A DNA stretch of 49,647 nt, filler included, from Jimgerdemannia flammicorona (taxonomy: Eukaryota): the NCBI GenBank assembly GCA_003990765.1. It is 2 parts of 2 records of this genome, joined end to end, with 100 filler letters (N's around TTAATTAATTAA, not from the genome) between each part and the next. Parts side by side here need not be neighbours in the genome. Positions count along the whole stretch, not along the records: positions 1 to 24,775 come from RBNJ01000926.1; 1 more part is not named here. One strand, 5' to 3'. Numbering within the stretch: the stretch's first letter is position 1; each line of letters begins with the position of its first letter. Made by a program: the position numbers and the translations under genes. The notes below the pieces were generated by a model. That model ran no database searches, was not told where the DNA came from, and was given only the letters and a program-made list of their open reading frames with translations. This document shows, piece by piece, positions 1 to 48,672 of this stretch.

Positions 1-913
1 CTCCAGCCTTCTTGAGGTGCTCCTTTTCCTCAGGTGTAAGTTTGCCTTTCTTGCTCTTGTCGATGGTGTCTAGGTCCATGGGGGCAGGTCCAACAGTTCT
101 GACTTTGGGTTCCTCCCTTCTGTGGTTATTGTTGTTGTTGAAAGGTGGTCTCTTCTGTTCAAAGCGGTGACCATAGGTGATGGCATCAAACCTATCAGCA
201 ATTTTCATTGCTGTGTCTAGGTCCTTGGGTTCTTCTAGTTCAATACGAGCTCGGGTTTAGCCTTTCAAACCTCGGATGTACTTGTCAACCTTCTCGTCTT
301 CAGTGACATGTGGTAATTCTAGCAGGATTGACAGGAATTGTGCATTGTATGCTTGTACAGACTTGAGTTGTTTGACATTTGCCAGATGGTCTCGCGCAGC
401 CTTGGTGCTGTTGACTGGTTTGAATTAGCCTTGAATAGCATCAGAGAATTTGCCCCAGGTCTTGATTCGGCCAGAGAATCTGGTATTCTGGATATGATTT
501 TGCCACCAGATTGCAGCATTCCCTCGGAGGAGTGTGGCAGCAAATTGGACTAGTGTTGTTTCTTCCAAATTGGTCAGTTCTCCATATTGCTCCAATTGGA
601 AAAGCCAGGCATCGGTAGACAGTCCTCCTCTTTGACCATCAAAGGTATCAGGTATCTGAGGCTTGATAGTGACTGCTGTCAGATGTATTGATGTCGGTAG
701 AGGTGTGGAGGTATGAGCGGAGGCCTTGCTTTCCTTTCTTTCTACACGTTCTTGAAGTTGGGCAATCTGAGCTAATGCAGTTTGCAAAAGACTTTCGATG
801 GACCCGGTTGACTGGGTGGAGATTGGCTGTTCCTCTTCTTCTTCTTGCTGATGGTAAGAGGCATTGCCTGGACCATAGGTATTGTATGAAGGGTTCCACC
901 CATTGTCCTCCAT
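1..913 (-). pseudogene. gag of A1 (retrotransposon capsid domain), with in-frame stops
   Basis: ORF 425..913 continues in frame past a TAA through KYIRGLK to PMDLD, typical of Ty3/Gypsy gag. Confidence 0.88.
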
Positions 914-967
914 AGTGTTGTGACTGATATCTTGAGAGGTGTCTTGATAAGGCTAGGTGTAACTTCA

Positions 968-979
968 CCACTGCTACCA
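968..979 (-). promoter_or_regulatory. Primer-binding site of A1, TGGTAGCAGTGG (initiator-Met tRNA-like)
   Basis: Begins with TGG 2 nt inside the 5' LTR boundary. The same PBS occurs at 7250-7261 (B1) and, with a transition, at 14170-14181 (A2). The tRNA assignment is inferred from the ...CUGCUACCA 3' end of iMet tRNAs. Confidence 0.75.
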
Positions 980-981
980 AG

Positions 982-1385
982 TGTAACGGTTCTAGTTTCT
1001 AAATGAGGAAGCAACTAATTCTGGTGGTCCTAAGTAGCTCAAAAAGATACTAAGGATTCAAGTATTCTCGAAGGATTTCTGGGAGAAAATATTCTGAGGC
1101 TTTATTCATGAGAACAAAGGGGATATTTATACAAGATCTGAAAGAAGGATCCGGAAGGATCTGAGAAATCAAAGGAAAATGCCAAGAGGAAAGTTCTCAG
1201 CAAAGATGACAAATGATGACAAATAAAGTTCTACAAGTTTCCAGGACATTCAGTGACTAACTAAATAAGTACTAGTTAATGCTCGGTGCCAAGAAAAGGG
1301 TTTCTAAGCATTCGGAAAGTACTGGAAGGTCATAGAATGTTGAAGAAAGACAAAGAAAAGAAATAAACTATGCTAAAATGTTACA
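982..1385 (-). repeat. 5' LTR of A1 (404 bp)
   Basis: TG...CA inverted ends; matches 9021-9423 and 14184-14586; minus-strand GTATAAAT (~1125-1132) followed by AATAAA (~1101-1106). Confidence 0.93.
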
Positions 1386-4300
1386 AGTGGTCTAGTTTGG
1401 GAATAGCTTATCATCATTTTCATTCTATTGCTTGAGATATTGGATATTAAAGACCTGATGGACCCTAATAGTATCTGGTAGTGCCAATTTGTAGGAAGTA
1501 GGAGAGACTTGTGCGATGACTTTGAATGGTCCAATGAACTTGCTGTTCAGCTTTATAGTTGAGGTTATCAACTCGGTATCCTCAGATGTCCAGTAGAACT
1601 TTTTCTCTAATGTCAAAGATTTCTTCTCAGTGGTGTTGGTTAACATACTGTGACTGTTGTTCTTAAGCTTGCAATAAATTCTCAATTACAATCTGGCTTA
1701 GATTACATATTTGGAGTAAGAATTCTTCAATAGCTTCGACTGTTGAGGGTTCTTCAGTGGTTTGGATAAGTGTCAAAGGGGTGTTTGGGTTTTGTCCAGT
1801 ATTGGCAAAAAATGGAGTCATTCTAAGAGAAGCTTGCTTGCTGTTGTTATAGGCAAACTTGACTACAGTGAGGTGTTCATGCCAATCATCTTGTCTGTAA
1901 GAAACATAGTTCCTTAGCATTTGTTCCAGAGTTCAGTTCATTCTTTTGGTTTGACCATCAGTTTCAGAGTAAAAGACTGTGGATAGTACAAGTTTTATTC
2001 CAAGGTGTCTATAGAGGGCTTTCTAAAAATAGCTGGTGAACTTTGGGTCTCAGTCACTAATAATAATCTTGGGAAGACCATGATAGCAGAAGATGTTATC
2101 AAACAAGAGTGTAGCTATGTCTGGTGCTATTGCAGTAGTGGTAGTTGGTATAAAGTAGGCTTGTTTGCTGAGATAATCCATAAAGACAATAATTATATCT
2201 TTTCCATTCTTGATTCAGAGTAGTTATACAATGAAGTCTATAGAGATTTGTTCCCAATTAGCAGATGGTACTGGGATAGGGTGAAGTAGGCCAGGTTTTG
2301 CTAGGATTGAGGACTTGTTTCATTAGCAGGCATTATAGGAAGTAATATAGGTCTTGAGCTGATCTGCCATGCAGGGCCAATAGAAGTTTTGGGAGATAAC
2401 TTCATAGCATTTATTGAATCCTAAATATTTAGTGGTAGGAGTATCATGATATTCGAATAGAATAGTCCTTCAGAGGTCTCAGTTATTTGGAATATATAAT
2501 CTGTTCTTATAGTAGATTGCATTATCCTTGAGTTAGTATTAGTTGTACCAGGTATGCTTGTCAGCATTATTATATTTCAAAATTTCTTAGAGTACTTGAG
2601 CTTCTTTATCATCAGCACATGCTGTGATAATTTGTTCTATGATAGAGTTTATAATCAAAGTGAGGATTTGGATAACTTCTTCGATTGATAGTCTGGATAT
2701 TGCATCAGCAATAATGTTTTTCTTACCAGGGCAATACTGGATTTCATAGTCAAAGTTGGTAAGAACTTTCATTCATCTGGCTTACTTTCAAGAAAGGGTA
2801 GCCTGTGTCTTGATGTTGACTAATGACTTGTGGTCAGTCAATATGGTGAAGTGTGCTCCTTTTAGATATAGTCACCATTTAATCAGAGTGTCTATGATGG
2901 CTAATATTTCCTTCTTGTAAGTTGCATAATTGATTTCAGCATCATTGAACTTGTGGGAATGATAGGCCACAGGGTGTCCTTCTTGCATGAGCACTGCTCC
3001 AAGAGCTAGGTTAGAGATATTGGTAGTGACTTTATATAGCAGGGCAGGATTTACTACCTGAAGCACTGGAGTGGTTATCAAGGCATCTTTTAGTACTTGA
3101 AAGGCTGTATATTGTTTGAGTCCCCAATTTGCAAGATTGTTGAAGTCTTTTTCTTGTTTCATAGTCCAGAGCTGTTCTTCTTTCTTATTGTGCTTAGTCA
3201 TTTGGGTGAGGGCAGTAGCAATTTTGGCAAAGTTGATAACAAATCATCTGTAATAATTTGCTAATCCCAGGAATAACTGGAGGTCCTTCAGCTTCTTGGG
3301 TCTGAGCCAATTCTTGATTGTGGAGATTTTGCTGGGGTCTACTTTGATTCCATTGGGTATGATAATGTGTCCAAGGAATTGGATTTTCTTCAGGAGAAAT
3401 TCACACTTACTGAGTTTTGTAAAGAGTTGGTTTTCTTGAAGTTTCAGTAGTACTAGCTCAAGGTGTTCAAGATATTCCTCCAGGGTTTTGCTGAAGACTA
3501 GGATGTTATCAATGTAGACAATAACAAATTTGTCTAGATATGGATGCAGAATAGTGTTCATCAGGGTCTGGAAGATTGCAGGAGCATTAGTTAAGCCAAA
3601 AGGCATAACCAGAAATTCGAAATATCTATAGTGGGTTCAGAAGACTGTCTTGTAGATATCTTCTTTTTCATGGCAATTTGCCAATAGCCATTTCACAGAT
3701 TGAAAGAGCTCATGAATTGTGGATTGGTAAGCCTATTGAATATTTCATCGATTCTGGGTAGTGGGCAACAGTTCTTGATGGTCTGTTCATTGAGGTTATG
3801 GTAATCAATACACATTTGCAAGTCTCCTCCTTTCTTGACAACAAAGAGGACTGGTGCACCATAGAGTGATACACTGGATCTGATGAATTCTTATTCTAGG
3901 AGTTTGTTGATTTCTTTCTTAAGTACATCAATTTCTCTTGGCAACATGTGGTAGATTGACTTGAAGGCTGGCTTGGCATCTGAAATAGTCTTGATGGTAT
4001 GGTCTACTGCTCATTTGGAGGGTAGACCTTTTGGAAGTTTCTTTGGGAATATATCTCAAAATTTCTGGAGTAATGGTCTAACACAGCTGTCAACTTTGAA
4101 AAAGTCTTCTTCAGAGTTCTTGAGTTCTCCTTTGGATGGGCAGATAGAGATAGCAAAGAGAGGGCATTTCTTGACCAATTTCTTGAGTTATAACTTATTG
4201 ATGTGGGTGATCTTTGGTTCAGGGTCACTAGGACTAAGTGGGTCCTTTTTGCCTTGTAGTTTGAAGTTGTGGTATCCTTTCTTGATAGTCAGAGAGTGGT

Positions 4301-7225
4301 TTACCCAATCAATCATGGGGTTCTCTTGTTTCAACCATGAAGTTCCAAGGATGATCTCGTTGTCAGAAAGTGGTACAATTTGGAGGGTAATATATACTTA
4401 ATAGTCACTAATTCAGAAGAGTAGATTGCAGACTTCCTTACTAATAACATGTGAGGTTTCATCAGCCATAGCAACTGCTTGAGTTTGTTGTACCAGAGAG
4501 ATAAAGACCTTGAGTCTGTTGGCTGTTTCTTCATTGATGAAGTTGCCTGAGGCACTACTGTCTATTATAATTTTGACAGGTGCTCAGTTGACAAAAGCTT
4601 GGAGTATAAGCAGTTTGTCTGATCCAATAGTGGTAATTTCAGTTGTAGGAGCTTTCCTTCTATTGGTTCTTCTTTGAGTCAATTCATTGATATAAGAGAA
4701 GTAAACATCAATCATTCAGGATGAGTATATTCCAATACCATGGGAGCATCAGCCACTTGGTATATATCCATCTTCGATTTTCTTGTAGAATTGTTCTTTA
4801 TTTATGGTAGGTTGGGCTGGGGCCTTGTTTGATGAGCTAAATCCTTTGGATTCTTGGATGGTAGGCAGTAGTTCAGGGACTTCTTTGACTGTCAGAGTTG
4901 ATTTGATTTTTTTGAATAGGATCTGGGCAATGCAAAAACCTATGGAGATCTTGAAGGGTGTCCAACTATGATTTCAGATGAGGACAATAATTTCACCTGT
5001 ATAATCTTCATCAATGACTCCTCCTTCTACTGAGAGTCCTTTCAATGCTAAGCTGCTGTGACAACATATTCTTCCAACATATCCTTCAGGAATTTGGATA
5101 CTGATTCCTGTGTAGACTTACTTGACTTCTCGGTTGGAAACTGTAGCTTCTTCAGCTACATACAGGTCATATCCAGCTGCTTTTTGACTTCCTTTAGTTG
5201 GGCTTTAGCAGTTTGTCTTAGCTTGACAACATCTAATATTCTGGTAGTCAGATTATTGAGATAGTACAGAGTAGTAATAGTTGCTCATATTGCTGTTTGG
5301 GGTTTTCAGTTGGGGCAGACACTGGCCATATGTCCTGTCTTTCAGCAATAGAAGTATGCTCTGCTTCTTTGAAGTTCATTTCTTTTACCTTTGGTGAGTT
5401 TCTTGAAGGTACTTGGCTGAGTGGGTTCATGATTTCTGAGTGTCTATGAGATGGATATGGAGGGAGCTTGAGATGTTTCATACTTGGGTTCTTCTTTCTT
5501 GGTCCAAGTCTTTTTCTTATTGTTGAATTATCTTCAGGGCAGAATTGGTCCAGCTGTTATAATTTGCTTGACCATGGTCTTGATTCTTACTAGGTACTAT
5601 TGTTGGTGATCACAACCAACTGGGCAGCCTTGTTTACAGATTTTTCTAGTAAGCTATTCAGGCAGGGCATCAAATAAATAGTCTGCTCTTGTATCATTTC
5701 GTACTTCATCATTGGTAATATATCCTAGGCCAACAGTGTTCAGGAGTGACTCAAGTTTTGTACAGAAGGTTTCAAATTCTTCTTTGCCATATATGTACAT
5801 CAAATTTGAGATTATGGAGTTTTACTCAAGATTCAGCAATCATGGTTTTGCTGTAGTATTGGGCAATTATGAGTTGTTTGAGTCCAGGGGCTACAGGATG
5901 TGCTCCATATCCTGGGGTATTATTCACTGCATTCTGAGCAACTACTGCAGGTCGGGTGTCCCATGTGAGGGGTTTTTCAGAAAGAGTTCGCCACCATTCT
6001 TCGGCAGGTCCTCGGAAGAATGTAACAACTCAGCAGACATAGGCTGTAGTAGTAGCAAAGAGTTCCAGAGTGTGGTCTTGATTGTTTATCAGAAAGCAGT
6101 CAGCAACTCACTCATTTGTCCATTGATTGGCTTCGAAGTTGGTGTCAACTATACTAATGAAGCTTTGGACTTCTTGTGCAATATCATTGAAGGTAGATAG
6201 GCTCAGATTTTTGGTAGATCAGGTCTGTTCAGCTAAGGCAGTAATGGTTGCTGCCATTATGGCTATCTGGGTTGTGAGATCTAGAATCTATTGGTTTGCC
6301 ATATTGTTTACTGGGGGCAGTTGGACTACTGGTAGTGGTATTACTGGTACTACTTAAGGTACTGATGCAGAGTGTGATGGGGTTCTTTGAGTCTGTGTAA
6401 GTTGCTAGAGTAATAGTTGTGGATCTGAAGTAAGGGCTCAATGGATAGCTGTTTGTTGCTGTGTCAGTGTATTTTGTCCTGATGGAGGCATGTCTCCTTC
6501 AGTGGTATATCCAAGATCAAATTCACTGAGATACTCCTCCTCCTCTTCGGTTTGGTCCTTGTGTAGTCAGGTTTGCTCAGCATCAAAGTAGACAGAATCA
6601 GTTGTATATCTGATTTCAGATAGACTTAATTCAAAGTCAAGTTCTGGTTCAGTATTGGTTTCTGATTCAAGTAGTATTGTAGCTAGACCTGCTTCTGGTT
6701 CAGAGTCAGGTAGTTGATGGAGGGTTTCTCTTGCTTCTTTTTTAAGAATATAGCAGACCTTACTGTTCTGGAATCAGTAGTATAATACAGTCTTGGTCCT
6801 GGTATAGTGAAAGTCAGTAGAGTTGAGCCACTTGGCTACAGAGGCTTGGACTTCATGAGGGACTAAGGCTAGAAAGACTGCTGCTGGTTATCCTAGGTCA
6901 CTTGGATTTATGGAGCTGACAAAACTCTTATTGAGAAGAGTAAAGAAGGCTTCTATAAGACCTTCTTCATCTTGACTTGCTGGGTGTAGAGCAAGGAGTT
7001 CAGTGAATAGGGTTTCACCTATTTGCTGATTTAACTGGAGTATTTCTTTCTTTGAATGAAGTTTTTCCCACTTGTTACAGGTGTGGAGATCAAATTATCC
7101 TTATACGTCAGGTTCAATTCTCTTCAGATTGTCAGATAGTTCAGGATAAATTCTAGTTCAGAGGTTGGGCTTTATACCAACTTGTAGGAATTCACAGAGG
7201 GGTTTGTAGCAAGGTGAGGAAGCAT
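1386..7225 (-). pseudogene. Decayed gag-pol of B1
   Basis: Long N-terminally extended gag; CCHC knuckle CFYC.KTGHMASVC (~5315-5360); protease IIDSSASGNFI (~4540-4575); RT MPFGLTNAP...VYIDNILVFS (3244-3606); RNase H (2872-3201); integrase with KFIGPFKV (1425-2450); many stops. Confidence 0.92.
4830..5235 (-). pseudogene. dUTPase domain in B1, between gag and protease
   Basis: Manual translation gives AAGYDLY...TGISIQIPEGYVGRI..HSSLALKGLSVEGGVIDEDYTGEI...IAQI...KGFSSS, covering the five trimeric dUTPase motifs in decayed form. Confidence 0.92.
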
Positions 7226-7921
7226 CTTGAAGTAGAATTGGATTGTAAACCACTGCTACCAAGTTGTAAGAGGGTTGCTTTTTTAGAGTAACTGTTACAT
7301 AGTTCTAGAAGGGTTTTCTGGAAGTTCTGGATATTCTGGAAGACCATTTTCTTAAGGTCAAGATTAATTTCATATGGAGTATATCCTCTATGCTTATTGA
7401 TTTTGAGATCAGATTGATGTCTCAACCAAAGTCCTTTTTCGGACTAGTTCTGGATGTTTAGGATTTTTTGTATTTCAGGAAGTTCAAGAAACTAAGACCA
7501 GCTTAGTTGAATTGGCATATCACTGCAGACAATACCCAATTAGGAAATTTCATGATGGGGTTAGGAGTGGGACCTAACAGAGAGCAGATTTACTTAAGAG
7601 TAATTTGTGAGTTATTAAATAGATTTATTCGCTATTCATAATATTGCTATACTAGGAGTAGTTGTGTAAAGGGATATTGTGGGAAAGTATTCAGATCTGT
7701 TCAAGTCTGAGATTCTGAGGTCTGGGGGAGGGGGTATTTATACTAGTGAGAGGCTATCTGGACTATGCTAAATATGGATATAGTACTTAGTATCTTGCTG
7801 AGTTGGAATACAGTCATATAGTACAAGTGTGATCTGAGATCATCTAATTGCTGAGTCAGTTCACAGTCACATTGTATAAGGCTAATCTAACTATACTATG
7901 ACTGCTAAGCTATTTATAGGT

Positions 7922-9019
7922 TTAGACACTATCTGGGTAGTCTTTGATGACATCACCATCAATGACATCATCTCTGATGAAGTAGTTATCTAGGAAAAGT
8001 AGTTTGCAGATCACTTCTCCTTGTTCACTGAGGTAATAATACATCAGAACTTCATCTTCGTCCTACAAGATAGTATCATCTGTCTCATATACTGGATAAA
8101 GTATTGGTGGGCAAAGTAGGAGTGTATTGTTTTTACTTTCATTGGATTCGCTGTCTGCATACCTTCTATAGGTTATAGTACTATGAGTCATGGGGTTGTA
8201 GTAAGCTGGCAGCTGTGGTTTATGTTGCTTGTACTCAGGTGGTGAAGTGGTTGATTCGATCTCAAGGGTTGTCTGGAGGTACAGGTTGTGTTCTCCAGTC
8301 TCTTCATTATAGTTGAAGTAATCCAGAGTGAACATAGGTTGGTATTCATACCAGTGGTCATTGTCCCAATAGGTCTTGTAGGTGGTTATGAACTGTTGTA
8401 AGTTCATTGGTAATATTGGTAGAGTGATCAGAGTTGGCAGAGATTCTTGGCTGGAGGTCATGTTGGCATCAGAGGGATCATTGTCTTCTGCTTCATCTTC
8501 ATTGAACTGGATTATATCATAAATATCCTTCATAGCATATCTGACTTGAGGCATTTGCAGGATATGGTCATTGGGATATAGGAAGGTTCTATCTGTGGTC
8601 TGGACATACTTGAGGTACTTGTGGTTGAGTTCTTGTATTATGTCATTGATTTGACCATAGGATAGAGTAGCAACCATTTTAGTAGTAGTAACTCAGAGGT
8701 GGGGAATAAAGGTGCTATACTCATAGAAGAGTTTTTGGTGTTTGCAGGCAATAAGTTTCTGGTGTTGAGACATCTGGGTAATGTCCATATCATAGTGGTA
8801 TTCAACCATGTCTTCCAAGAGGCAGCCAATCTAATAGTAGCTTGAGATTTGTCCAATTCAGTGGGCCTCACTAAGTATGTTCAGGGTATTCCATTAGGCT
8901 TCTACAAAGTAGAGGGATGCTAGACTATGGATATTCATAAGGGGCAGAGGGGGTGTGACTCGATTGACAATAGTATTCCAAATTTCAGCATAGATGCAGT
9001 TGTAGATCTCAGTGGTTAT
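7922..9019 (-). pseudogene. ~365-codon accessory ORF inside the U3 of the B LTR (unknown product)
   Basis: One frame from MTTEIYNCIY to DYPDSV* with only 5 internal stops; includes the 204-aa track ORF 8063..8677; homologous frame in B2 at 38033-39129. Confidence 0.75.
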
Positions 9020-9020
9020 A

Positions 9021-9423
9021 TATAATAGTTCTAGTTTCTAAATGAGGAAGCGACTAATTCTGGTAGTCATAAGTAGCTTGAAGAGATACTAAGGATTCAA
9101 GTATTCTTAAAGGATTTCTGAGAGAAAATATTCTGAGACTTTATTCATAAGAACAAAGGGGATATTTATACAAGATCTGAAAGAAGGATCTGGAAGGATC
9201 TGAGAAATCAAAGGAAAATGCCAAGAGGAAAGTTCTCGGCAAAGATGACAAATGATGACAAATAAAGTTCTACAAGTTTTCAGGACAATCAGTGACTAAC
9301 TAAATAAGTACTAGTTAATGCTCAGTGCCAAGAAAGGATTTCTAAGCATTCAGAAAGTACCAGAAGGTCATAAAATATTGAAGAAAGACAAAGAAAAGAA
9401 ATAAACTACACTAAAATATTACA
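9021..9423 (-). repeat. 3' LTR of A2
   Basis: Copy of 982-1385, adjacent to the polypurine tract AAGGGGGGGGAGA on the minus strand. Confidence 0.93.
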
Positions 9424-9749
9424 TCTCCCCCCCCTTAAGAATCAAAATCCTCATTAAATTCTCAAAGTTATACACAATAAACAATAAGACTAAAAGAAAC
9501 TTCAAATTAAATATACTGACTCATTGGCAAGGATTGGCTGTCCTTATATAAGGTGAGGGCCAAAGTATCATCTTGATCAGATGAGAACTGGTTCAAACCT
9601 CGTTGGTTGTAGGATTTATAGGGTTTTCCTGTATCTCTTGCTTCTGATGCTGTATCCCTTAGAGAGCCCTGATGTGTAATGTGCCTGATCAGTACAGTAG
9701 GTCATCTACTATTAAGGGGAGAATCTCATGGGCAGTCAATGAGTTCCTT

Positions 9750-12700
9750 TTTGCTCAAACTCTTGGATGAGGTCTTGGGAGTTCTTGAGATTGGTAGCAG
9801 GTTCCCAGGTGGCATCATATTCAGAGTAACCCATCCACTTGACTAGGTATTCTGTGCAATGGTATTGGACTCATTTGTCTAAGATTTTCTCAACTTCATA
9901 CTTGATGTGGTCTTCAACTATGACTGGTGCTGATGGTGTCAGAATTCAGCCAGGGTATAGGGGTGACTGGTTCCAGGCCTTGAGTTGTGACACATGGAAT
10001 ACTGGGTGTATATACATGGTTGTTGGTAAGTTGAGATGGTAAGATCAGGTAGAGACTTGCTCAGTGATCTCAAAGAGTCTAAGGTACTTGGACTAGAATT
10101 TGGCTAACTGGCAGTTGACTTGAGATTGAGCCTTGATGTTGTCAGCTTTGAGTAGAACCATATCACCAATGTTGTATATGACATCTTGTCACTTCTTATC
10201 TGCATACTTAGCTTGATGTTGCTGAGCCTTTTGCAGATTCGTAGTGGCGATCTTGAGAAGGGAATCCATTTTGTCAATAAGGTTCTGGGCTGTGGGGACT
10301 TGTGTGTAACTGGATTGCTGGAATTGGACTAGACTTGCAGGAGTCTCAGAGTTTTGACTGTGAAGTAGCTGGAATGGAGAAAGACCAGTTGATGATTGGT
10401 TGGCATTATTGTAGACGAACTTGGTGTAGGTCAGATAGTGGTCTCAATCATCTTATTCATAAGACACATAGTTTCTGAGCATTTGTTCAAGTATTCTGTT
10501 CATTCGCTCTGTCTATCCATCAGTTTGAGGATAGAAGGCAGTAGACATAGCAATTTGAGTTCCAAGGGTCTTAAAGAGTGCTTGCCAGAAGTGACTTGTG
10601 AACTTGGGGTCGCAGTTGCTGATAATTACTTGGGGAAGTCCATAATGGTGGAAGACAGTCTTGAAGAAGATTCTTGCAATTTCTGGGGCAGTGGTATTGG
10701 TTGTGGTTGGCTCGGTAATTGTAATCTTGGTGAGACGGTCCACAAATACAACAATAGCATCATAGCCTGTTTTGGTTCGTAGGAGTTGCACAATGAAGTC
10801 CATTATGACTTGTTTGAACTTCTTGGTTGGAATTGACAAGGGTTGTAGAAGACCAGCAGGTGCTTGGTTGCTTGACTTGTTTCTTTGGCAAAGATCGCAG
10901 CTTTGGACATATTCCTTGATTTCCTTGAGCATGTTTGGCCAGTAGTAGTCTCATTGGATATTCTTGATGGTCTTTTCAGTTCCAAGGTGGCCAGCTAGTG
11001 GGGAGTCATGATGTTCATGAAGAATCTTATACCATAGTTCAGGGTTGGCAGGAATATATACTTTGTCTTGATAGTATATGAGATTGTTCTTGATGGTGTA
11101 CTTTTTCTTAAATTCCTTGGTGTTCCTTTGTAGAACCAGAGAGTCTTGTTTGTACATCTTCTTGATCTGGTTGAGGAATTCAGGTGCTACAGTAACTTGT
11201 AAAATTGCAGTAAGGTTAGGTCTCCTTGAGAGTACATCTGGTACAACTAGAGTTTTGCCAGACTTGTAGATGATGTTTGGGGTAAAAGTCTGAAGTAGTT
11301 GGCTCCACTTGGCTTGTTGGCAAGAAAGGGTTGGTTGAGTATTGATGTACTGAAGGGACCTGTGATTGGTGATCACATTAAACTCAACTCCTTCTAGATA
11401 GTGTCACCAGGTCTTGAGGGCATGTATGATTGCCAGGAGTTCCTTTTCATGAGTAGCCAGCTTTTGTTCTGCTGGGGACAATTTTCTTGACTCAAAGGCA
11501 ATAGGTTGGTGTCCTTGACCATTATCTTGAGAAATGACTGCACCAATGATAAAGTTAGATGTATCTGTAGTGACTATGAACTTCAAGTTTAGGTCCATGT
11601 TTCTAAGGACAGGTGCATGGGTCAGGTAGTTCTTGAGTTCTTGAAAGGCTTGTTGACAGAAGGCATCCCAGGTATAGGGGACATAGAGGTCAGAGTTGGA
11701 TATGTCTTCTGGCTTGATTTGAATTTGGTGATACCTAGAGGTGAGATCAATCTTGGTGAAGTACTTAATATTCTTGAGAGCATCAAAGATTTGATCTATA
11801 AGTAGTAGTGGATAATGGTTCTTGACTGTGATCTTGTTGAGTGCACAGTAGTCTATGCATATTCATAGAGTATTATTCTTTTTCTTGACAAATAGGACTG
11901 GGGAGCCAAAGGGTGACTTGCTTGGTTGAATGGCTCCTCGCTCAATAAGTTCATTGAGTTCCTTCTTGACTGCTTCAATTTCAAGTAGAGATATGTGGTA
12001 CATTTTCTTAGGTATAACTACATCAGATACCAACTTGATTTCGTGGTCATGGTCTCTTGAAGGTGGTAGACCAGGTAGTTTGTCTGGGAAGACATCCTTA
12101 TACTTGTTCAGCAGTAACTTGATGCTTTCACTAATTGATAGCTTCTTGTTTTCTTTCTTTGGTCAGATCAGTGTCATGAAGGCACAGGTAGCTTTCTTGA
12201 GGGCCTTCTTGAACTAAATTGCTGAAAGGGTAGCAATTGGGGTTCTCATCTGAGTCTTGTCTAGCTTGATGGTAATATTGGCTCCATCTTGAATCAAGGT
12301 GACTTCATTCTTGGTCCAATCAATCTGAGAGTTGTGCTGTATAAGCCAGAGTTTGCCTAAGATCAGGTCATGGTCTCCTAGTAGTACTACCTCAAAATCT
12401 AAATGTTTCCAATACTTCTGGATCTTGAGGGGAAGTTTAGCAGCAATTGAGTCAATTGGTAAGGTGGTGCTATCTGTAGTGACAACTCTACCATTCTTGT
12501 CAGCTGGTTTGGTGAGAATCTTGAGCTTGTCGATGAGGTTCTTGTTGATGAAGTTCCCAACAGCTCCACTATCTATAAGAACATCTAGCTCTTGTCCCTT
12601 GACTAGACCTTTGAAGATGAGCATTGAATTGGCTTGGTTCTTGGCTATACTTGCAACTTTGTCAGTACTGCCAAAGCCTTTCTGATCTCACTTGGTAGAA

Positions 12701-14115
12701 GACAGCTTGGTGACTTCTTTGATGACTAGTAGGGTAGCTCACTCTAGAATGAGCTGTGCAATTCTGTCACCTTCATTGACAGTATATAGTTGGTTCTTGT
12801 GGTTGACTAGCAGGACTTGCATTTTACCTCAGAAGTTAGGGTCGATGACTCCAGCACTAACATCCAATGAGTGCTTGAAGCTGAGGCCAGATCTTGGTAC
12901 AATTCTTGCATAATATTCCTTGGGAATTTCAACTAAAAGGCCAGTTGGGATGAGCCTTCTCTTATATTCCAGAATAGTGACTTGTTGTACTGCTTGAAGG
13001 TTTAAACCAATGGCTCCTTCTGACTGTGCTTGAGGGATCTGGACCTTGGGGTTGACTCATATGAAATTGAGTACAACTTCTTGTTTGACTGGTTGACCTT
13101 GAGTGTCTTTGGATAGAACCAGAATCCTCTTTGGTTCTGCAGTTTTCTTGGGATATTTGGTTGCAATGTAACCAGGCTGATAGCAAAAGAAGTAGGCTCC
13201 AGCCTTCTTGAGACACTCCTTTTCCTTAGGTGTAAGCTTGCCTTTCTTGTTCTTATCAATGGTGTCTAGGTCTATGGGGGCAGGTCCAACAGTTCTGACT
13301 TTGGGTTCCTCCCTTCTGTGGTTGTTGTTGTTGTTGAAAGGCAGTCTCTTCTATTCAAAGTAGTGACCATAGATGATGATATCAAACCTATCAGCAATTT
13401 TCATTGCTGTATCTAGGTCCTTGGGTTCTTCTAGTTCAACATGAACTCAGGTTTGACCTTTCAGGCCTTGGATGTACTTGTCGACCTTCTTGTCTTCAGT
13501 GATATGTGGTAATTCTAGCAGGATTGACAGGAATTATACATTGTATACTTGTATAGACTTGAGTTGTTTGACATTTGCCAGACAGTCTTGCGTGGCCTTG
13601 GTACTGTTGACTGGTTTGAATTGGTCTTGAATAACATTAGAGAATTCACCCCAGGTCTTGATTCAGTCAGAGAATTTAGTATTTTGGATATGATTTTACC
13701 ACCAGATTGCAGCATTCCCTCAGAGGAGTGTGGCAGCAAATTGGACTAGTGTTGTTTCTTCCAAATTGGTCAGTTCTCCATATTGCTCTAATTGGAAAAA
13801 CCAGGTATCAGTAGACAGTCCTTCTCTTTGCCCATCAAAGGTGTCAGGCTTCTGAGGCTTGATAGTAACTGCTGTCAGATATATTGATGTTGGTGTAGGT
13901 GCGGAGGTATGAGTGGGGGCCTTGCTTTTCTTTCTTTCTATGCATTCTTGAAGTTGAGCAATCTGAGCTAATGCGGTCTGCAAAAGACTCTCAATGGCTC
14001 CATTCAACTGAGTAGGGTTTTGCTATTCCTCTTTTTCTTGCTGATTGTACTGATTGTATGAGGCATTACCTGGACCATAAATACTATATGAAGGGTTCCA
14101 CCCATTGTCCTCTAT
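9750..14115 (-). pseudogene. Decayed gag-dUTPase-PR-RT-RH-IN-chromodomain polyprotein of A2
   Basis: Protease LIDSGAVGNFI (12214-12624); RNase H (11404-11598); integrase HHD...GH...CDLC and MDFIVQL (10513-11376); chromodomain YEVEKILD...YLVKWMGYSEYDATWEP (~9770-9905). Confidence 0.93.
12660..13075 (-). pseudogene. dUTPase domain in A2, between the gag knuckle and protease
   Basis: AIGLNL...IPTGL...YARIVPRSGLS...AGVIDPNF*G...GDRIAQLIL...*DQKGFGST; all five motifs recognisable. Confidence 0.93.
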
Positions 14116-14183
14116 AGTATTGTAACTGATATCTTAAGAGGTGTCTTGATAAGGCTAGGTGTAACTTCACTACTGCTACCAAG

Positions 14184-14586
14184 TGTAACAGTTCTAGTTT
14201 CTAAATGAGGAAGTGACTAATTCTGGTAGTCCTAAGTAGCTCGAAGAGATACTAAGGATTCAAGTGTTCTCAAAGAATTTCTGAGAGAAAATATTCTGAG
14301 ACTTTATTTATGAGAACAAAGGGGATATTTATACAAGATCTGAAAGAAGAATCTAGAAGGATCTGAGAAATCAAAGGAAAATGCCAAGAGGAAAGTTCTT
14401 GGCAAAGATGACAAATAATGATAAATAAAGTTCTACAAGTTTCAAGGACAATTAGTAACTAACTAAATAAGTACTAGTTAATGCTTGGTACCAAGAAAGA
14501 ATTTCTAAGCATTCAGAAAGTACCAGAAGGTCATAGAATATTGAAGAAAGACAAAGAAAAGAAATAAACTACACTAAAATGTTACA
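14184..14586 (-). repeat. 5' LTR of A2
   Basis: Copy of 9021-9423, adjacent to the PBS. Confidence 0.93.
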
Positions 14587-15279
14587 TCATGTTTATATAT
14601 ATTCAGAAGTTGTAGTTGTTGTTTGTTTTGGTTCTCTGTTCAATGCATCTTGGTGTCCAGTATATATGCATTTGGTCCTGATTGGTAAGATTCCATTTGT
14701 GTAAATCTCGTGTTCTGTAACTTCAATTTGTTCAGAGGTTACATATGATTTCAGTGGCTTGTTCAGAAGGGTGATGTGTGATTTTGATGGCTTGGAGGTT
14801 GCGCGCTTACAGACATTTAGAATTCTATAACTAACTTTGAAACCCCCTATTACTTAAGAGACTAGTTTATAAATAGCAGTTGTGGGTTGGGAGAGATGGA
14901 CATCATCACCTAAAACAAAAAAAACCCCCCAAGTTCATACTAACACTGCAACCGATTATTCGCTGGTGTACAACAGCCACCAATCGCCCACCCTATCTTT
15001 TTTTTTTTTTTTTGTTTTAAAAAAAAAAAATAAAATAAAAATAAATTATTGCTAGTTGACGGGCAGACGGCGGATGGACAGGCAGACAGACAATGGCTTG
15101 TTGTCCATAAATGAGGTATTTTGGATTTTGTTGCTAGTTGACGGGCAGACGGGTTTCGGGTGGATAACGAACGTACAAGTTTGCTGAACCAATGGACCAT
15201 CATTCCATTGCTGAGTTCAACTAACCGACCAGATAGGTGATAAAAAGAAAAGTCCATTACAAATTTCGCTACCGCAACT

Positions 15280-21385
<6,106 letters not shown>

Positions 21386-26072: not shown

Positions 26073-28447
26073 GTGAGGGTGTTCTTTGAGTCTGTGTAAG
26101 TTGCTAGAGTAATAGTTGTGGGTCTGGAGTAAGAGCTTGATAGATAACTGTCTGTTACTATATAGGTGTATTCTGTCCTAATAGAGGTACATCTCCTTTG
26201 GTAGTATATCCAGGATCAAATTCACTGAGATACTCTTCCTCTTCTTGGCTTTGATCTCTGTGTACTTGGGTTTGCTCAGTATCAAAGTAGATAGAATCAG
26301 TTATATATCTAATTTCAGAAGGACTTAATTCAAAGTCAAGTTTTGGTTCAGTATTGATTTCAGATTCAGGTAGAGTCATAGCTAGATCTGCTTCTGATTG
26401 TAGGCAGAGAGTTTCTCTTGCTTCTTTTTTAAGAATATAGCAGGCCTTACTGTTCTGGAATCAGTAGTACATATAATGCAGTCTTAGTCCTGGTATGGTG
26501 AAAGTTGGTAGAGTTGAGCCAGTTAGCTACAGAGGCTTGGGCTTCATGAGAAACTAAGACTAGAAAGACTACTACTGGTTGTCCTAGGTTACTCAGATTT
26601 GTGGAGCTGACAAAACTCTTATTGAGAAGAGTAAAGAAGGCTTCTATAAGACCTTCTTCATCTTGACTTGCTGGGTATAGTATATATAAGGAGTTCAGTA
26701 TATAGAGTTTTGCCTATCTGCTGATTTAACTGGAATACTTCTTTCTTTGAATAAAGTTTGTCTCACTTGTTATAGGTATAGAGGTCAAATTGTCCTTATA
26801 TGTCAGGTTCAATTCTCTTCAGATTATCAGATAGTTTAGGATAAATTCCAGTTCAGAGGTTGGGCTTTATACTAACTTGTAGGAATTCTCAGAGGGGTTT
26901 GTAGCAGGGTGAGGAAGTATCTTAAAGCTGAATTGAATTGTAAACTGCTGCTATCAAGTTGTAAGAGGGTTATTTGTTAAGATAACTATTACATAGTTCT
27001 GGAAGGGTTTTCTGGAAGTTCTGGATATTCTAGAAGACTATTTTCTCAAGGTTAAGATCAATTTCATATAGAGTACATCCTCTATACTTATTGATTTCAA
27101 GATTAGATTGATGTCTCAACCAAAGTCCTTATTTGGACTAGTTCTAGATGTTCAGAATTTTCTGTATTTCAGGAAGTTTAAGAAACTAAGACCAGCTTAG
27201 TTGAATTGGTGTATCACTACAGATAATACCTAATTAGGAAATTTCATGACAGAGTTAGGAGTGAGACCTAATGGGGAGCAGATTTACTTAAGAGTAGTTT
27301 GTGGGTTATTAAATAGGTTTATTCACTATTCATGATATTACTATACTAGGAGTAATTGTATAAAGAAATGTTGTAGAGAAGTATTCAAGAATGTTCTTAT
27401 ATGTTTGAGCTGAGATTCTGAGGTCTGGGAGAGGGGGTATTTATACTAGTGAGGGGCTATCTGGACTATGCTGAATATAGATATAGCACTTAGTGCCTTA
27501 CTGAGTCAGAATGTAGTCATATAGTATAAGTGTGATCTGATATATCAAGGGATCATCTGACTACTGAGTCAGTTTACAGTTATATCATATAAGACTAATC
27601 TAACTATACTATGACTGCTAAACTATTTATAGATTTAGATACTATCTGATTAGTCTTTAATGGTATTACTATTGATGATATTATCTCTAGTAAAGTCTAA
27701 GCAGTTTTCTGACTTCTGATATCATCAGTTTCAAAGGTGTCATCACCTCTATCTCTTATAAGATTAAGACTGTCCTTGGTAGTAGTGGTTGTATAAGAAT
27801 AACAGGTCTTGGTTCTCTTTTTTTTGGACTACTAATGTATTTGTAAGAACTAGCCACTCTTGTCTAGAGCAAGGGCTCTCAATATTACAGCTGGAGGTTC
27901 AACCCTCTTGGAAATGATATTTTCTATAATCCAAGACAATTTCTAGTAGTAATATCTATCATATGGATGGGCTTGAGATTGGTTTCAACAATATCAGCTT
28001 TCTTGAGTTCAGATGAAGTATTCATCATTCTTCAATAGAAATGACACAGATAGAGTGAATGGGGTTGTTCAAATGCATTTTGCTTCTACTAAGTAATGAG
28101 GTCTTCATATAGTTATAGTGTATCTTGGTCTTGAGTTGATAAGTGCAGTTTATGAATCTTTGATAGATGTGATAGGGTTTTTCTTATCTTGGTTGAGTTT
28201 GGTACTTCAGTTTTCTTTTGTAATAGTATAGTATACTAAAACTAGTTGTAGAGATTTAGGGTTAGTCTTATAGTTGTAGACTTCTTCTAGTATTCTTGTA
28301 TCTTGGCAATAGGTTCATATACTTGCTGGCATATTTTGTATAACCAGGTAATCTCTTCAGTAACTTGTTTTGTAGTCTTATATGTGGTTTCCAAATTAGT
28401 TCTGAGGATAATATGCAATTTGGTGGCTTGGAGGTTGTATGCTTACA
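26073..28447 (-). mobile_element. Family B variant copy B3: 5' gag region, PBS and variant 5' LTR (26960-28447), inserted into the 3' LTR of B2
   Basis: 26075-27695 is collinear with B1 6375-7983. The LTR ends GCTTACA at 28447, followed by the interrupted B2 3' LTR. Confidence 0.85.
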
Positions 28448-31400
28448 ATACAGTTGTAGATTTCAGTGGTCATATTTATATATATATTCAGAAGTTGGGA
28501 TTGTTTATTTGGTTTATTGTAGTTTTCTATTTTAATATATCTTAGTACTCAGTATATATGCATTTGGTTCTGATTGGTATATAAGATTCTGTTTATATAA
28601 ATCTTATATTCTATGACTTTGAGTTGACTCAGCTTTGTACACTATAACTTCAGTTTGACTTAGCTTCATAATCTTGCAGGTGATTCCCAGATTTGTTTAG
28701 AGATCATATGTAATTTTGATAGCTTGTTTAGAGAGTGATATGTGATTTCAATAACTTGAAGGTTGTACACTTACAACTCTCCTCTTCTTAGCTTTTGATA
28801 TCCTCATCAGAGTCTTCTAATTTTGATCTAGTGTTATTATACCATTTAGATGGTCAAAAGTCCAGTAAAGTCCATTTTTCTCAGAAAGTAGCATGCTCAT
28901 AGTACAGTTGCTTAATGCATTAGATTTATATATTAAAAGATCATATGTTCAATATCATATGCCAGAAGTGATTCTGATGTCATTCACTATTGGAGAATTT
29001 TCTCTAAGAAATCTTCTTAAATATCTATGCCTCATTTCCCACCAGTGGTATGGAGAGAATAGACTGGCTTTCAGTTTTGCTATTTTTCTAAAGGATCAGT
29101 ATTCTTTTGTCTTAATTTGCTGAGTTCTTAATTTTGTTCATAATAATTATAAGAGTACTTGATGTTCAGGAGAGATAATATATAGTATATACTGATAGAT
29201 ACAGAAGTATTCAGATTTCAGTTATTCAAGAAATCATATTTCTGAACTAAGTTGGTGGCATTCTGGAGATTGGTCTTAGGTTCCCATGTTGCATCATAGA
29301 TCAGATAATCTTTCCATTTAACAAGATACTCAGGATAGTTCTTGTATCTATATTTGTTGAGAATTTGTTCAACTTCGTATTCTTCTTAGTCATTAATAAT
29401 AACAGGTGCAGGTGGTTCTGTGGTTTGGTTCAGGAATAGTTCATCATCATTTATATTATATCACTTAAGACATTAGATATTGAAGACTGGATGAATCTTA
29501 ATAGTATCTGGTAGTACCAATTTGTAGGAAGTAGGAGAGACTTGTGTAATGACTTTGAATGGTCCAATAAATTTACTGTTCAGCTTTGTAGATGATCTGT
29601 ACTTAAGGTTATCAACTTGGTATCCTTAGATATCTAATAGAACTTTTTCTCTAATATTGAAAGTTTCTTCTTAGCAGTGTTGATTGATATACTGTAACTA
29701 TTGTTCTTGAGCTTGGGATAAATTCTCAATTACAATCTGGCTTAAATTACACATTTGGAGCAGGAATTCTTCAATGGCTTCAATAGTAGAGAGTTCATCA
29801 GTAGTTTGGATAAGTATCAGAGAAGTGTTCAGGTTTTGTCTAGTATTGGTAAAGAATGTAGTCATTCTAAGAGAGGCTTGCTTGCTGTTATTGTAGCCAA
29901 ACTCAACTGTAGTGAGATATTTATGCCAATCATCCTATTTGTAGGAAACATAGTTCCTTAGCATTTATTCTAGAGTTTGGTTCATTCTCTCAGTTTGGCC
30001 ATTAGTCTCAGGGTAAAAGGCTGTAGATAGTATAAGTTTTATTCCAAGATATGCATAGAGGGCTTTCTAAAAATAGTTGGTGAATTTCAAGTCTCAATTA
30101 CTAACAATAATCTTAAGAAGACCATGATAGTAGAAGATGTTATCAAACAAGAGTGTAGCTATATCTGATGCTATTGTGATAGTAGTAGTTGATATAAAGT
30201 GAGCTTGTTTGCTAAGATAGTCTATGAAGACAACAATTGCATCTTTCTCATTCTTGGTTTGGAGTAGTTATACAATAAAGTCTATAGAAATTTATTCCCA
30301 ATTAGCTGATGGTACTGGGATAGGGTGGAGTAGGCCAGGTTTTACTAGTATTGAAGACTTGTTACATTGGTAGACATTATAGGAAGTGATATAAATCTTT
30401 AACTGATCTGCTATATGGGGCCAATAGAAGTTTCAGGAAATAACTTCATAATATTTATCAAATCCTAAATGTCTAGCTATAGGGGTATCATGATATTCAA
30501 ATAGGATAGTCCTTTGGAGGTCTCTATTGTTTGGAATATATAATCTGTCCTTATAGTAGATAGTATTATCCTTCAGTTAGTATTGATAGTACTAGGTATA
30601 CTTATCAGCATTATCACTGCTCAGGATTTCTTAGAGTACTTGAGCTTTCTTATCATCAGCACATGCTGCAATAATTTATTTCATGATAGAGTTTGTAATC
30701 AAGGTGAGAGTTTGGATAACTTCTTTAATTAGTAGTCTGAAAATTGCATCGGCAACAATATTCTCCTTGCCAGAGTGATACTGGATTTTATAGTTGAAGT
30801 TGGTAAGAACTTTCATATATCTGGCTTACTTTTGGGAAAGAGTAGTCTGGGTCTTAATATTGACTAATGATTTGTGGTCTGTTAAAACAGTGAAGTGTGC
30901 TCCTTTTAGATAGGATCACCATTTGATCAGAGTATCTATGATGGCTAATATTTCCTTCTCATAGATTACATAGTTGATTTCAGCATTATTGAACTTATAA
31001 TAATGATAGACCACAGAGTGTCCTTCTTATATGAGTACTACTCCAAGAGCTAGATCAGAGGCATCAGTAGTAACTTCATAAAATAGAGCAGAGTTTGCCA
31101 CTTGAAGTACTGGAGTGGTTATCAAGGTATCTTTTAGTGCTTAAAAGGCTGTATCTTATTTAGGTCCCCAATTTACAAGATTGTTAAAGTCTCTTTCTTG
31201 CTTCACAGTCCAGGACTGTTCTTCTTTCTTACTATACTTAGTCATTTGGTGAAGTTGGTAACAAATTGCCAGTAATAGTTTACTAATCTCAGGAATGACT
31301 AGAGGTCTTTCAGCTTCTTGGGTCAAGGTCATTTTTTGATTATAGAGATTTTGCTGAGGTCTACTTTGATTCTATTAAGAGTAACTATGTATCCAAGGAA

Positions 31401-32859
31401 TTGTATTTCCTTCAGAAAGAATTCACATTTGCTGAGTTTTATAAAGAGTCAGTTTTCTTGGAGTTTCAGTAGTACTAGTTCAAGGTGTTTGAGATATTTC
31501 TCTAGAGTTTTGCTAAAGACTAGGATGTCATCAATATAGATAACAATAAATTTGTTCAGGTATGAGTGTAAAATAGTATTCATAAGTATCTAGAAGGTTG
31601 CTGGAGCATTAGTTAAGCCAAAGAGCATAACCAGAAACTCAAAATATCTATAGTAGGTTCAGAAGGCTATCTTGTAGATATCTTCTTCTTTCATGGCAAT
31701 TTGCCAATAACTATTTTATAGGTTGAAAGAGCTCATGAACTGTGGATTGGTAAGCCTATTGAATATTTTATCAATTCTAGGTAATGGGCAGCAGTTCTTA
31801 ATTATTTGCTCATTGAGGTCATAGTAGTCTATGCATATTCTTAGGTCTCCTTCTTTCTTGACAACAAAGAGGACTGGTGTACTATAGGGTAATATACTGA
31901 GTCTGATGAATCCTTGTTCTAGGAGTTTGTCAATTTTCTTTTTGAGTACATCAATCTCTCTGAGAGATATGTGGTAGATTGACTTGAAGACTGACTTGGC
32001 ATCTGGGATAGTCTTGATGACATGGTCTACTGCTCATTTAGGTGATAGGCCTTTTGAGAGTTTCTTTGGGAATATATCTTGGAATTTCTAGAGTAGAAGT
32101 CTGACATAGTTGTCAACTTTGGAAAAGTCTTCTTCAGAATTCTTGGGTTCTCCTTTGAATGGATGGATGGAGATAGCAAAGAGAGGGCATTTCTTGGCCA
32201 ATTTCTTAAACTGTAGCTTATTGATGTGGGTGATCTTTGGTCCAGGATCACTAGAACTGAGTGAGTCCTTTTTGCCTTGCAGTTTGAAGTTGTGGTATTC
32301 TTTCTTAATGGTTAGGAAATGGTTTATCCAATTGATTATGAGATTCTCTTATTTCAACCATAAGGTTCCAAGAATGATTTTATTATCAGAAAGTAGTACA
32401 ATCTGGAGGGTAATATATACTCAGTAGTCACTAATTAAGAAGGATAGATTGTAGACTTCCTTGCTAATGATATATGAGATTCCATCAGCTATAGCAACTG
32501 CTTGAGTTTATTGTACTAAAGATGTCAGGACCTTGAGTCTGTTGGCTGTTTCTTTATTGATAAAGTTGCCTAAGGCACTACTGTCTATTATAATCTTGAC
32601 AGATGCTTAGTTGACAAAGGCTTGAAGTGTAAGTAGTTTGTCTAATCCAATGGTGGTGATTTTAGTTATAAGAGCTTTTCTTCTATTGGGTTTTCTTTGA
32701 GCCAGTTCATTGACACAAGAGAAGTAATTGTTGATCATTCAGGAAGAGTACATTCTAATATCATGAGAGTATTGACCACTGGGTATATATCTATCTTTAA
32801 TTTTCTTGTAGAATTATTCTTCTTTGTTTGTGGTAGGTTGGGCTAGGGTCTTGTTTGAT

Positions 32860-33262
32860 GAACTAAATCCTTTGGATCCTCAGATAGTGGGCAGTAGTTC
32901 AGAGACTTCTTTGACTATTAGAGCTGATTTAATTTTCTCAAATAGGATCTGCATAATACAGAAATCAATAGAGATCTTGAATGGTATCTAACTGTGGTTT
33001 TGGATAAGGATAATAATTTCATCTATATAATCTTTATCAATGACTCCTCTTTCTACTGAGAGTTCTTTCAATGCTAGGCTGCTGTGATAGTATATTCTTC
33101 CAACATATCCTTCAGAGATTTGAATGCTAATTCCTGTATAGACTTACTTGACTTCTCAGTTGAAAACTGTAGCTTCTTCAGTTATATATAGATCATATCC
33201 AGCTATCTTTTGACTTTCTCTGGTTGAGGCCTTGGCAGTTTGCCTTAACTTGACAAAGTTTG
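32860..33262 (-). pseudogene. dUTPase domain in B2
   Basis: Collinear with 4830-5235: AGYDLY...TGISIQI...VIDKDYIDEI...*GSKGFSS. Confidence 0.88.
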
Positions 33263-37916: not shown

Positions 37917-38032
37917 ATATAGTATAAGTGTGATCTGATATATCAAGAGATCATCTAACTGCTGAGTTAGTTCATAGTCATATCATATAAGGCTAATCTA
38001 ACTATACTATAACTACTAAGCTATCTATAGAT

Positions 38033-39129
38033 TTAAACACTGTCTGAGTAGTCTTTAATGATATCACCATCAATGATATCATCTCTGATGAAGTAGTCAT
38101 CTAAAAAGAGTTATTCATAGATGAATTCTCTCTATTTGCTAAGATAATAATATATTGGAACTTCATTACCATCCTACAGAATAGTATCATCTGTCTCATA
38201 TACTGGGTAAGATATTGGTGGGCAAAAGAGGGGTGCATTATCTTTGCTTTCATTGAATTCACTATTTGTATACCTTCTATAAATAACAGTACTATAAGTT
38301 GCAGGGTTGTAGTATGCTAGTAGTTGTACTTCATATCACTCATACTCTGGTAGTGGGGTTGTTGGTTCAATCTTGTGGGTTGTCTGGAGATATAGATTGT
38401 GTTCTTCAGTCTCTTTATTATAGTTGAAGTAATTGGGATGAATGCAGGCTAGTACTTATACTAGTGGTCATTATCCTAATAGATCTCATAGGTAGTTATG
38501 AACTATTGTAAGTTTATTAGTAAGGTTGGTGGGGTAATCAGAGTTGGTAGAGATTCTTGGCTTGAGATTATGTTAGCATCAGAGAGATCATTGTCTTCTA
38601 CTTTATCTTCATCAAATCAGATTATATTATAGATATCCTTTATGATATATCTGACTTGGGGCATTTGCAGAATATAGTTATCAGAGTGTAGGAAGGTTCT
38701 ATCTGTGGTCTGAACATACTCAATATACTTGTGGTTGAGTTCTTGTATTATATCATTGATTTGGTTATAGAATAAAATTACAACTATTTCAGTAGTAGTA
38801 ACTCAAAGATAGAGAATAAAGGTGCTATACTTATAAAGGAGTTCTTGGTGTTTGCAGATAATGAGTTTCTGGTATTGAGATATTTGAGTAATATCTGTAT
38901 CATAGTAGTATTTAACTATATCTTCTAGAAGATAGCTGATTTAGTAGTAGCTTGAGATTTGTCTGATTTAGTAGACTTCACTAAGTATGTTCAGGGTATT
39001 CTATTGGGCTTCTATAAAGTAGAGGGGTGCTAGACTATAGATATTTATAAGGAGTAGAGAGAGTATAGTTTGGTTGATAATAGCATTTCAAATGTCAGTA
39101 CAGATATGATTGTAGATTTCAGTAGTCAT
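38033..39129 (-). pseudogene. Second copy of the U3 accessory ORF (B2 5' LTR)
   Basis: Collinear with 7922-9019; intact ATG at 39127-39129; a 1-bp deletion near 38440; more stops. Confidence 0.7.
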
Positions 39130-48670: not shown

Positions 48671-48672
48671 AA

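Follow-up and report, generated by a model that had tools for sequence, protein, structure and literature searches.

[quoted passage not shown] The question is raised by a minus-strand stretch at positions 7922..9019 in DNA of Jimgerdemannia flammicorona. Retrotransposon LTRs are treated as regulatory DNA, and a selected protein gene in U3, if truly present, would break this pattern. The window analysed here is a stretch of 49,647 nucleotides in which two parts of assembly GCA_003990765.1 are joined through filler letters, and all positions count along it. An earlier note on this DNA had proposed an accessory gene of about 365 codons within the U3 of a Gypsy LTR (family B), present in two copies, B1 and B2. 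The carrier element, the extent and conservation of the open reading frame (ORF), its position in the LTR and its possible origins are considered in turn below.

Family B and its surroundings

In the window, GC-rich host genes (about 15-24 kb) are flanked by decayed, AT-rich retrotransposons, and the elements near the ORF all lie on the minus strand. According to the available part of PMC10386755, genomes of the genus Jimgerdemannia measure about 240 Mb with more than 77% repeats, and Ty3/Gypsy elements dominate in most of the genomes analysed in that study. Family B is a chromodomain Ty3/Gypsy retrotransposon (chromovirus) without env. In the minus-strand ORFs at 3636-1428, Pfam matches follow the Pol order reverse transcriptase (RT), RNase H and integrase (RVT_1, 4.8e-21; RT_RNaseH_2, 3.6e-23; SH3_Tf2-1, 8.3e-15), and the integrase chromodomain is recognized in B2 (Pfam Chromo, 1.2e-13, 29224-29385, minus strand). 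The parts of the family B elements and their neighbours in the window are as follows.

1..1385, minus strand: second 5' LTR and gag of family A, a chromovirus with LTRs of about 400 nt
1387..6395, minus strand: B1 internal region, with leader, gag region, dUTPase-like stretch, RT, RNase H and integrase SH3
6396..9020, minus strand: 3' part (in sense) of the B1 5' LTR, ending with CTTACA at 6401-6396; 80-85% identical to 34197-35858 and 37917-39129 (B2) and to 26073-27696 (B3)
9021..14586, minus strand: nested chromovirus A1, a complete family A element, splitting the B1 LTR; its LTRs of about 400 nt (9021-9425 and 14184-14586) are 94% identical
14587..14811, minus strand: 5' terminal part (in sense) of the B1 LTR, matching 28479-28775 (B3) and 39126-39433 (B2), cut off from the remainder by A1
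26095..28775, minus strand: B2 3' LTR (B3), starting with TGTAAG at 28775; ORF body replaced at about 27705-28451
28776..34420, minus strand: B2 internal region, 83% identical to B1 1387-5665, with the chromodomain at 29224-29385
34421..39431, minus strand: B2 5' LTR, starting with TGTAAG at 39431 and holding a 2058-nt insertion (35859-37916)
39634..49328: family C LTR element adjoining the B2 5' LTR; its LTRs of about 656 nt (39634-40289 and 48673-49328) are 85.5% identical

The LTR termini read TGTAAG at 39431 and 28775, and CTTACA or CTTATA at 6396, 34421 and 26095. A polypurine tract (28777-28788) abuts the 3' LTR of B2 about 450 nt after the chromodomain, and no TGG-initiated primer binding site was found after CTTACA in family B. 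The LTR length of about 2 kb given earlier has to be revised to about 2.85 kb in B1 and 2.94 kb in B2, B3 measuring 2.68 kb. The placement of the ORF inside the LTR, in sense orientation and upstream of a conserved TATA box, holds good, as the TGTAAG terminus precedes it and the CTTACA end follows. The repeat that contains it flanks the B2 internal region, and the ORF is bordered on both sides by sequence repeated at the two ends of B2. Each of the three family B LTRs in the window is part of an element, and the B1 internal region is truncated at 1387 by another family A LTR.

The whole ORF is found in two of these three LTR copies, while B3 keeps its ends only, namely the last ~20 codons of the ORF and 350 nt upstream of the frame described in the earlier note. 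The replacing sequence in B3 (27705-28451, about 750 nt) occurs nowhere else in the window, and its start in sense orientation is a second TGTAAG-type LTR terminus. B3 would accordingly be a later rearrangement, in which a related LTR was nested and a deletion then followed.

The nested element A1 has protease, integrase and chromodomain matches in Pfam and is flanked by a 5-bp target duplication (9016-9020 and 14587-14591), which reads TCATG on the right and is transition-mutated on the left. Its insertion took place at the proposed start codon of the longer frame, which reads ATG in the right copy of the duplication and ATA in the left one. For B2, no short target duplication was found; there are instead homologous flanks of about 110 nt on its two sides (25924-26032 and 39434-39542, 67% identity), and the 18 nt after the B2 3' LTR repeat, with one mismatch, the leader that follows the 5' LTRs. 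These flanks and the leader match may mark a tandem or recombined arrangement.

Several other features of the elements were recorded. A 500-nt piece of leader and gag is inverted between B1 (5673-6173) and B2 (33699-34198), with 83% identity on opposite strands. Between gag and protease, family B has a dUTPase-like stretch (4752-4973, minus strand) whose Pfam E value of 2.5e-4 falls below the cut-off, and a similar stretch in family A (12829-13056, minus strand) was seen by eye only. The 2058-nt insertion in the B2 5' LTR (35859-37916) is G-rich, with a GC skew of about +0.5, lacks any coding signal and has a 17-nt direct repeat on either side; its end resembles 24876-24932 on the opposite strand. 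Outside the elements, tandem repeats (15338-16230) lie in a 421-codon minus-strand frame (15280-16545) rich in Glu, Asp, Lys and Gly, the plus strand of which has Ser/Pro-rich frames, and a minus-strand ORF at 19933-20772 contains a run of more than 40 Gly codons. Both minus-strand frames adjoin a PEX6-like gene. A fragment of the host PEX6 shows 99% identity to a protein assigned by NCBI to Jimgerdemannia flammicorona, in line with a host that is this species or a near relation (Endogonales, Mucoromycota).

RIP-like or deamination-type hypermutation is present in this Mucoromycota fungus. Transitions and transversions between pairs of retrotransposon copies number 618/65, 209/20, 214/16 and 128/12, and the observed/expected ratio of CpG is 0.01-0.16 in the retrotransposons (1-14600 and 26000-49647) vs 0.99 in the host genes (16500-24000). 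Among the window-specific G-to-A sites, 2 of 22 stand in CpG context.

A reading frame of about 250 codons and its homologue

The minus-strand frame running from 9019 to 7922 has, as the earlier note had it, five internal stops and a terminal stop in 366 positions. Mononucleotide shuffles of this frame give 20.7±4.3 stops, and none of 2000 has five or fewer, which is also the case when the best of the six frames is taken from each shuffle (0/2000); the remaining five frames of 7922-9019 have 12-38 stops each. The deficit, claimed for the whole frame, stands for codons 115-365 and fails for codons 1-114. In B1, the former (251 codons) contain one internal stop against 14.5±3.6 in shuffles, none of 5000 being as low, whereas the latter contain four stops against 6.0±2.3 expected, a count as low as this being reached by 27% of shuffles. 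The length of 365 codons is likewise not borne out. When the transitions between B1 and B2 are reverted to C/G, stops are left at codons 54, 63, 109 and 319, the first three of which fall in the N-terminal part, and the initial Met of the only homologue, described below, aligns with codon 115. The ATG with which the frame was said to begin reads ATA in B1. The following parts can then be distinguished.

7922..8677, minus strand: B1 core ORF, 251 codons from Met (8677-8675) to stop (7924-7922), with an internal TAG at 8065-8063 (codon 319)
8678..9019, minus strand: the 114 N-terminal codons of the longer frame, with a stop count near expectation and no cover by the homologue; probably upstream untranslated LTR sequence
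38033..38787, minus strand: B2 core ORF, with one frameshift and 10 internal stops in 251 codons, more decayed than B1

An intron linking the first ~50 codons of the longer frame to the core was considered and judged a chance pattern: GTGAG at 8871 occurs in B1 only, and the sole AG before the Met is GAG. What had been reported of B2 (38033-39129) was confirmed, namely a single 1-bp deletion (opposite 8324), a retained ATG start and CAA at codon 42 where B1 has TAA, stops common to both copies being those at codons 54, 63, 109 and 319; the B2 frame has 10 further stops besides these.

A search of 5.8 billion proteins yielded a single relative of the ORF product (P0001, E 1.9e-86), an intact protein of 247 residues encoded on one 998-bp ENA contig from a public metagenome. 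By tblastn and BLASTP, 146 of 251 positions of the B1 core are identical (58%) and 197 of 251 positive, with two 2-residue gaps and no frameshift. The homologue begins with a Met that pairs with the Met of codon 115, its last residue pairs with the last codon, and it has Trp at codon 319, where B1 and B2 have a stop. The B2 core aligns by tblastn as two pieces in two frames, with 64/118 and 77/134 identical residues. An exhaustive HMMER search of 1.84 billion representatives found no further relative. Peptide patterns derived from the homologue gave 25 matches in JGI metagenome contigs, none of which was confirmed, and a search among proteins of 30-63 residues only, a range that is uninformative on split forms, found none. 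One JGI candidate (L001), retrieved by a degenerate DNA pattern that encodes a conserved stretch of 9 residues, was rejected: with a tblastn E value of 0.15 and nothing similar in the window, it matches by chance.

The comparison between the two LTR-borne copies and this one homologue points to selection on the encoded protein. In the core, B1 and B2 differ by 138 transitions and 15 transversions, and third codon positions account for 10 of the latter (P = 0.0085). Identity to the homologue rises from 146/247 (B1) and 140/247 (B2) to 160/247 once the B1/B2 transitions are reverted. Neutral evolution was simulated from the reverted sequence to the same amino-acid identity as that of the homologue, with 400 runs at each of kappa 1, 4 and 20. 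Runs without any stop made up 0.25-1.75% per setting. The mean BLOSUM62 score of mismatched positions is +0.198 for the real pair, against -0.39 to -0.59 in the neutral runs (sd about 0.17-0.19). At kappa 1 and kappa 4, each of the 400 runs stayed below the real value, and the highest score at kappa 20 was 0.244. Since the substitutions separating the ORF from its homologue are thus more conservative than in neutral simulations, the minus-strand ORF of about 250 codons is, or was, a real gene, as judged from sequence. The claim that the LTR holds a protein-coding remnant is hence upheld by one intact homologue and conservative substitutions. It is scarcely credible that the open frame is a mere by-product of an A-rich, G-poor sense strand. 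Long chance ORFs do occur here, for example a 172-codon frame at 5682-6200 on the plus strand; however, composition-matched shuffles never reached the observed stop count (0/5000), chance would have to account for an intact, full-length homologue at 58% identity that aligns without frameshift, and the substitutions are conservative beyond the neutral simulations.

B1 and B2 themselves are pseudogenes, inactivated by C-to-T and G-to-A hypermutation. Other copies were sought by aligning to 6000-9100 the contigs of four public runs (X1, X2, X3 and X5), which come from two soil-metagenome studies and 'organism A'; the alignments comprise 377 to 3607 short pieces per run, and no RNA run was listed. 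Most differences are sites where the window has A and the other copy G, or the window T and the other copy C. In run X1, such sites number 186 and 75, the reverse changes 84 and 55, and transversions 40 in all; this excess indicates that the window copy is the mutated one. The 16 best-supported core variants in the other copies comprise 7 synonymous and 9 residue-changing ones, and 6 of these 9 match the residue of the homologue. The stop at 8065-8063, which according to the earlier note would speak against a gene if the family consensus kept it, is not family-wide, as this position is Trp in the homologue and a Trp codon in two contigs of run X2. Contig pieces also tie the ORF to the flanks that it has in the window (7884-8098, 8613-8854 and 8851-9021), and a loose contig end at 9016 continues into the terminal part of the LTR, not into A1. 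The distinct contigs counted at 8503 are 30 in X1, 5 in X2, 2 in X3 and 14 in X5, numbers that fit a multicopy, element-borne sequence.

The predicted protein, as read from the intact homologue, is strongly acidic, with a pI of 4.05 and 46 Asp and Glu against 10 Lys and Arg; it has 23 Tyr, 24 Pro and no Cys, and no membrane segment, the top hydropathy over 19 residues being 0.97. No Pfam family matched the ORF protein at E <= 1 and no PDB chain at E <= 10. The same sequence is present in the ESM Atlas (pLDDT 0.39), where no feature matched and structural matches stayed at TM <= 0.30. AlphaFold2 gave no confident fold, with a pLDDT of 35.9 from the single sequence and 30.3 from a 4-row alignment. 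Its composition faintly suggests a protein-binding factor, which could act in trans either on the life cycle of the element or on its control by the host.

Position in the LTR and origin of the gene

Two motifs conserved in all three LTR copies bear on the position of the ORF.

7735..7742, minus strand: TATAAATA box, conserved in B1, B2 and B3, which follows the ORF stop after about 180 nt
7624..7629, minus strand: AATAAA, candidate poly(A) signal conserved in the same three copies, 113 nt beyond the TATA box

A TATA box followed by AATAAA is the usual layout of promoter, R and poly(A) signal. As the pair TATAAATA and AATAAA lies downstream of the ORF, the latter would, by position, belong to U3. 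In B2, where the LTR is uninterrupted at this place, the ORF starts about 690 nt from the LTR 5' end. With the TATA box at 7742 as promoter, U5 would extend over about 1.2 kb, an unusually large size.

Transcription might otherwise begin at TATATATAAA (14601-14592), near the LTR 5' end and just upstream of the ATG of the longer frame. The ORF would then fall in R/U5 and head the genomic RNA as its first cistron, in the manner of the ORF0/ORF1 that precede gag in plant Tat/Ogre-type elements. A TATA-like run does occur some 320 nt from the LTR 5' end, and elements whose LTRs exceed 3 kb can have an extra ORF ahead of gag, as the available part of PMC3485330 describes for Retrosat2 ORF0. Such a location is nonetheless improbable. 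Eight ATGs stand between such a start and the ORF Met in B1 (9020-8678, upstream of the Met at 8677), and the AATAAA at 7629 would end the transcript 1.2 kb before the LTR end, ahead of leader and gag. The 113-nt spacing of the two downstream motifs, moreover, agrees with the usual layout described above.

With the ORF in U3, we favor the reading that the sense gene of about 250 codons in the family B LTR is an accessory gene of the element itself, to which we give a probability of roughly 0.55. As a U3 sequence, the gene would occur a single time in the genomic RNA, at its 3' end, and become part of both LTRs through reverse transcription. Of all ORFs in the full-length RNA it would lie nearest the 3' end, so that its expression would need a 3'-coterminal subgenomic mRNA; this could be spliced, or started inside the element or the LTR, and would end at the LTR's own poly(A) signal. 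No promoter, splice site or transcription start belonging to the ORF was identified. The base composition of the ORF is native to the element and unlike that of the host genes: after transition reversion the ORF has a GC content of 0.46, is A-rich and has more C than G, gag and pol having a GC content of 0.43-0.45 and host genes one of 0.55.

The main rival, which we regard as considerably less probable, is a captured, passive gene. A gene from the host or from another mobile element would have been transduced into, or nested in, an ancestral LTR and passively copied since, and the conservative divergence from the homologue would then reflect selection on the donor lineage, not on the element. 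LTR retrotransposons are known to capture gene fragments, as reported for 425 intact maize elements in the available part of PMC2774510. What keeps this rival alive is the stop at codon 319, common to B1 and B2, together with the homologue, which is seen on its one 998-bp contig only and might itself lie outside any LTR. The shared TAG may mean that the common source of B1 and B2 was already broken, in which case the gene was not needed in cis. That one LTR copy (B3) has a different sequence at the place of the ORF can also be counted in favor of a passenger. Against it, no host paralogue outside the element was found among the 1.84 billion representatives, proteins of the host genus included, nor in the JGI metagenome contigs; the base composition is that of the element and not of host genes; the ORF is complete, with start and stop, and not a fragment; and the many distinct contigs of the ORF region in runs X1, X2, X3 and X5 fit a multicopy, element-borne sequence.

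If the accessory-gene reading is extended, the LTR can be pictured as a gene cassette. Each LTR of family B, even a solo one, would hold a gene, either promoterless or self-promoted, and the acidic protein made from it would act in trans to the benefit of the element, for example through contact with a silencing or chromatin factor of the host. This extension is tentative, and we rate it as doubtful; if true, it would give LTR retrotransposons other than retroviruses their first described U3-encoded protein. A selected protein gene in U3 would mean two gene copies per insertion, solo LTRs that keep a complete gene after recombination, and a coding sequence that is overlooked by LTR-based annotation and dating pipelines. 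Given the genome size and repeat content that PMC10386755, in its available part, ascribes to the genus, such a gene could rank among the most abundant coding sequences of the genome.

Comparison with known systems

Coding sequences are carried by LTR elements in several known ways. Captured gene fragments in LTR elements have been described in maize, rice and sorghum and in Bs1 (available parts of PMC2774510 and PMC7264820). Were the family B ORF a passenger, it would resemble them as a foreign coding sequence that an LTR element carries and amplifies. Captured fragments, however, are recognizable pieces of host genes and usually occur in one or a few copies, whereas the family B ORF is complete, has no host relative, shows the composition of the element and is found on many contigs.

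A second group consists of the additional ORFs of LTR retrotransposons, for which the comparison set comprised ORF0 of Retrosat2, RIRE3 and RIRE8, gene23 of Grande, RIRE2, Retand, brtn of Botrytis Boty and the 'add. ORF' of fungal chromoviruses. In the available part of PMC7264820, such extra ORFs sit in the internal region, either between LTR and gag or between pol and LTR, and these aORFs are described as having no relatives outside elements. Rice Retrosat2, with LTRs of more than 3.2 kb, has an orphan ORF0 upstream of gag-pol that was found in no other organism, as far as the available part of PMC3485330 goes. Among fungi, chromoviruses with a dUTPase and an 'additional ORF' have already been described (PMC2864245, available part), and Boty/BcGypsy1 carries brtn (bioRxiv 10.1101/2021.04.13.439636, available part). 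Like additional ORFs such as Retrosat2 ORF0, the family B ORF is a lineage-restricted orphan of a Ty3/Gypsy family with unusually long LTRs. Unlike them, as they are placed in the internal region in the available parts of PMC7264820 and PMC3485330, it lies inside the LTR itself. Phrase searches of the literature returned no description of a retrotransposon ORF in or within an LTR.

Retroviruses offer a comparable arrangement. MMTV sag and HIV/SIV nef are accessory ORFs located in, or overlapping, the U3 of the LTR, and MMTV sag and HIV nef are expressed from 3'-coterminal subgenomic mRNA. The family B ORF is similar to sag and nef in being a sense ORF in U3 upstream of the LTR promoter, here by position only, and, in the route proposed above, in its place at the 3' end of the genomic RNA, which leads to a copy in each LTR. 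It differs from them in its carrier, which is a fungal chromodomain Ty3/Gypsy retrotransposon without env and not a retrovirus, in having no sequence similarity to them at the Pfam (E <= 1) and PDB (E <= 10) thresholds applied, and in a product that, at a hydropathy maximum of 0.97, has no membrane segment. With these differences, the family B ORF would stand as a non-retroviral parallel to sag and nef, and a directly testable one.
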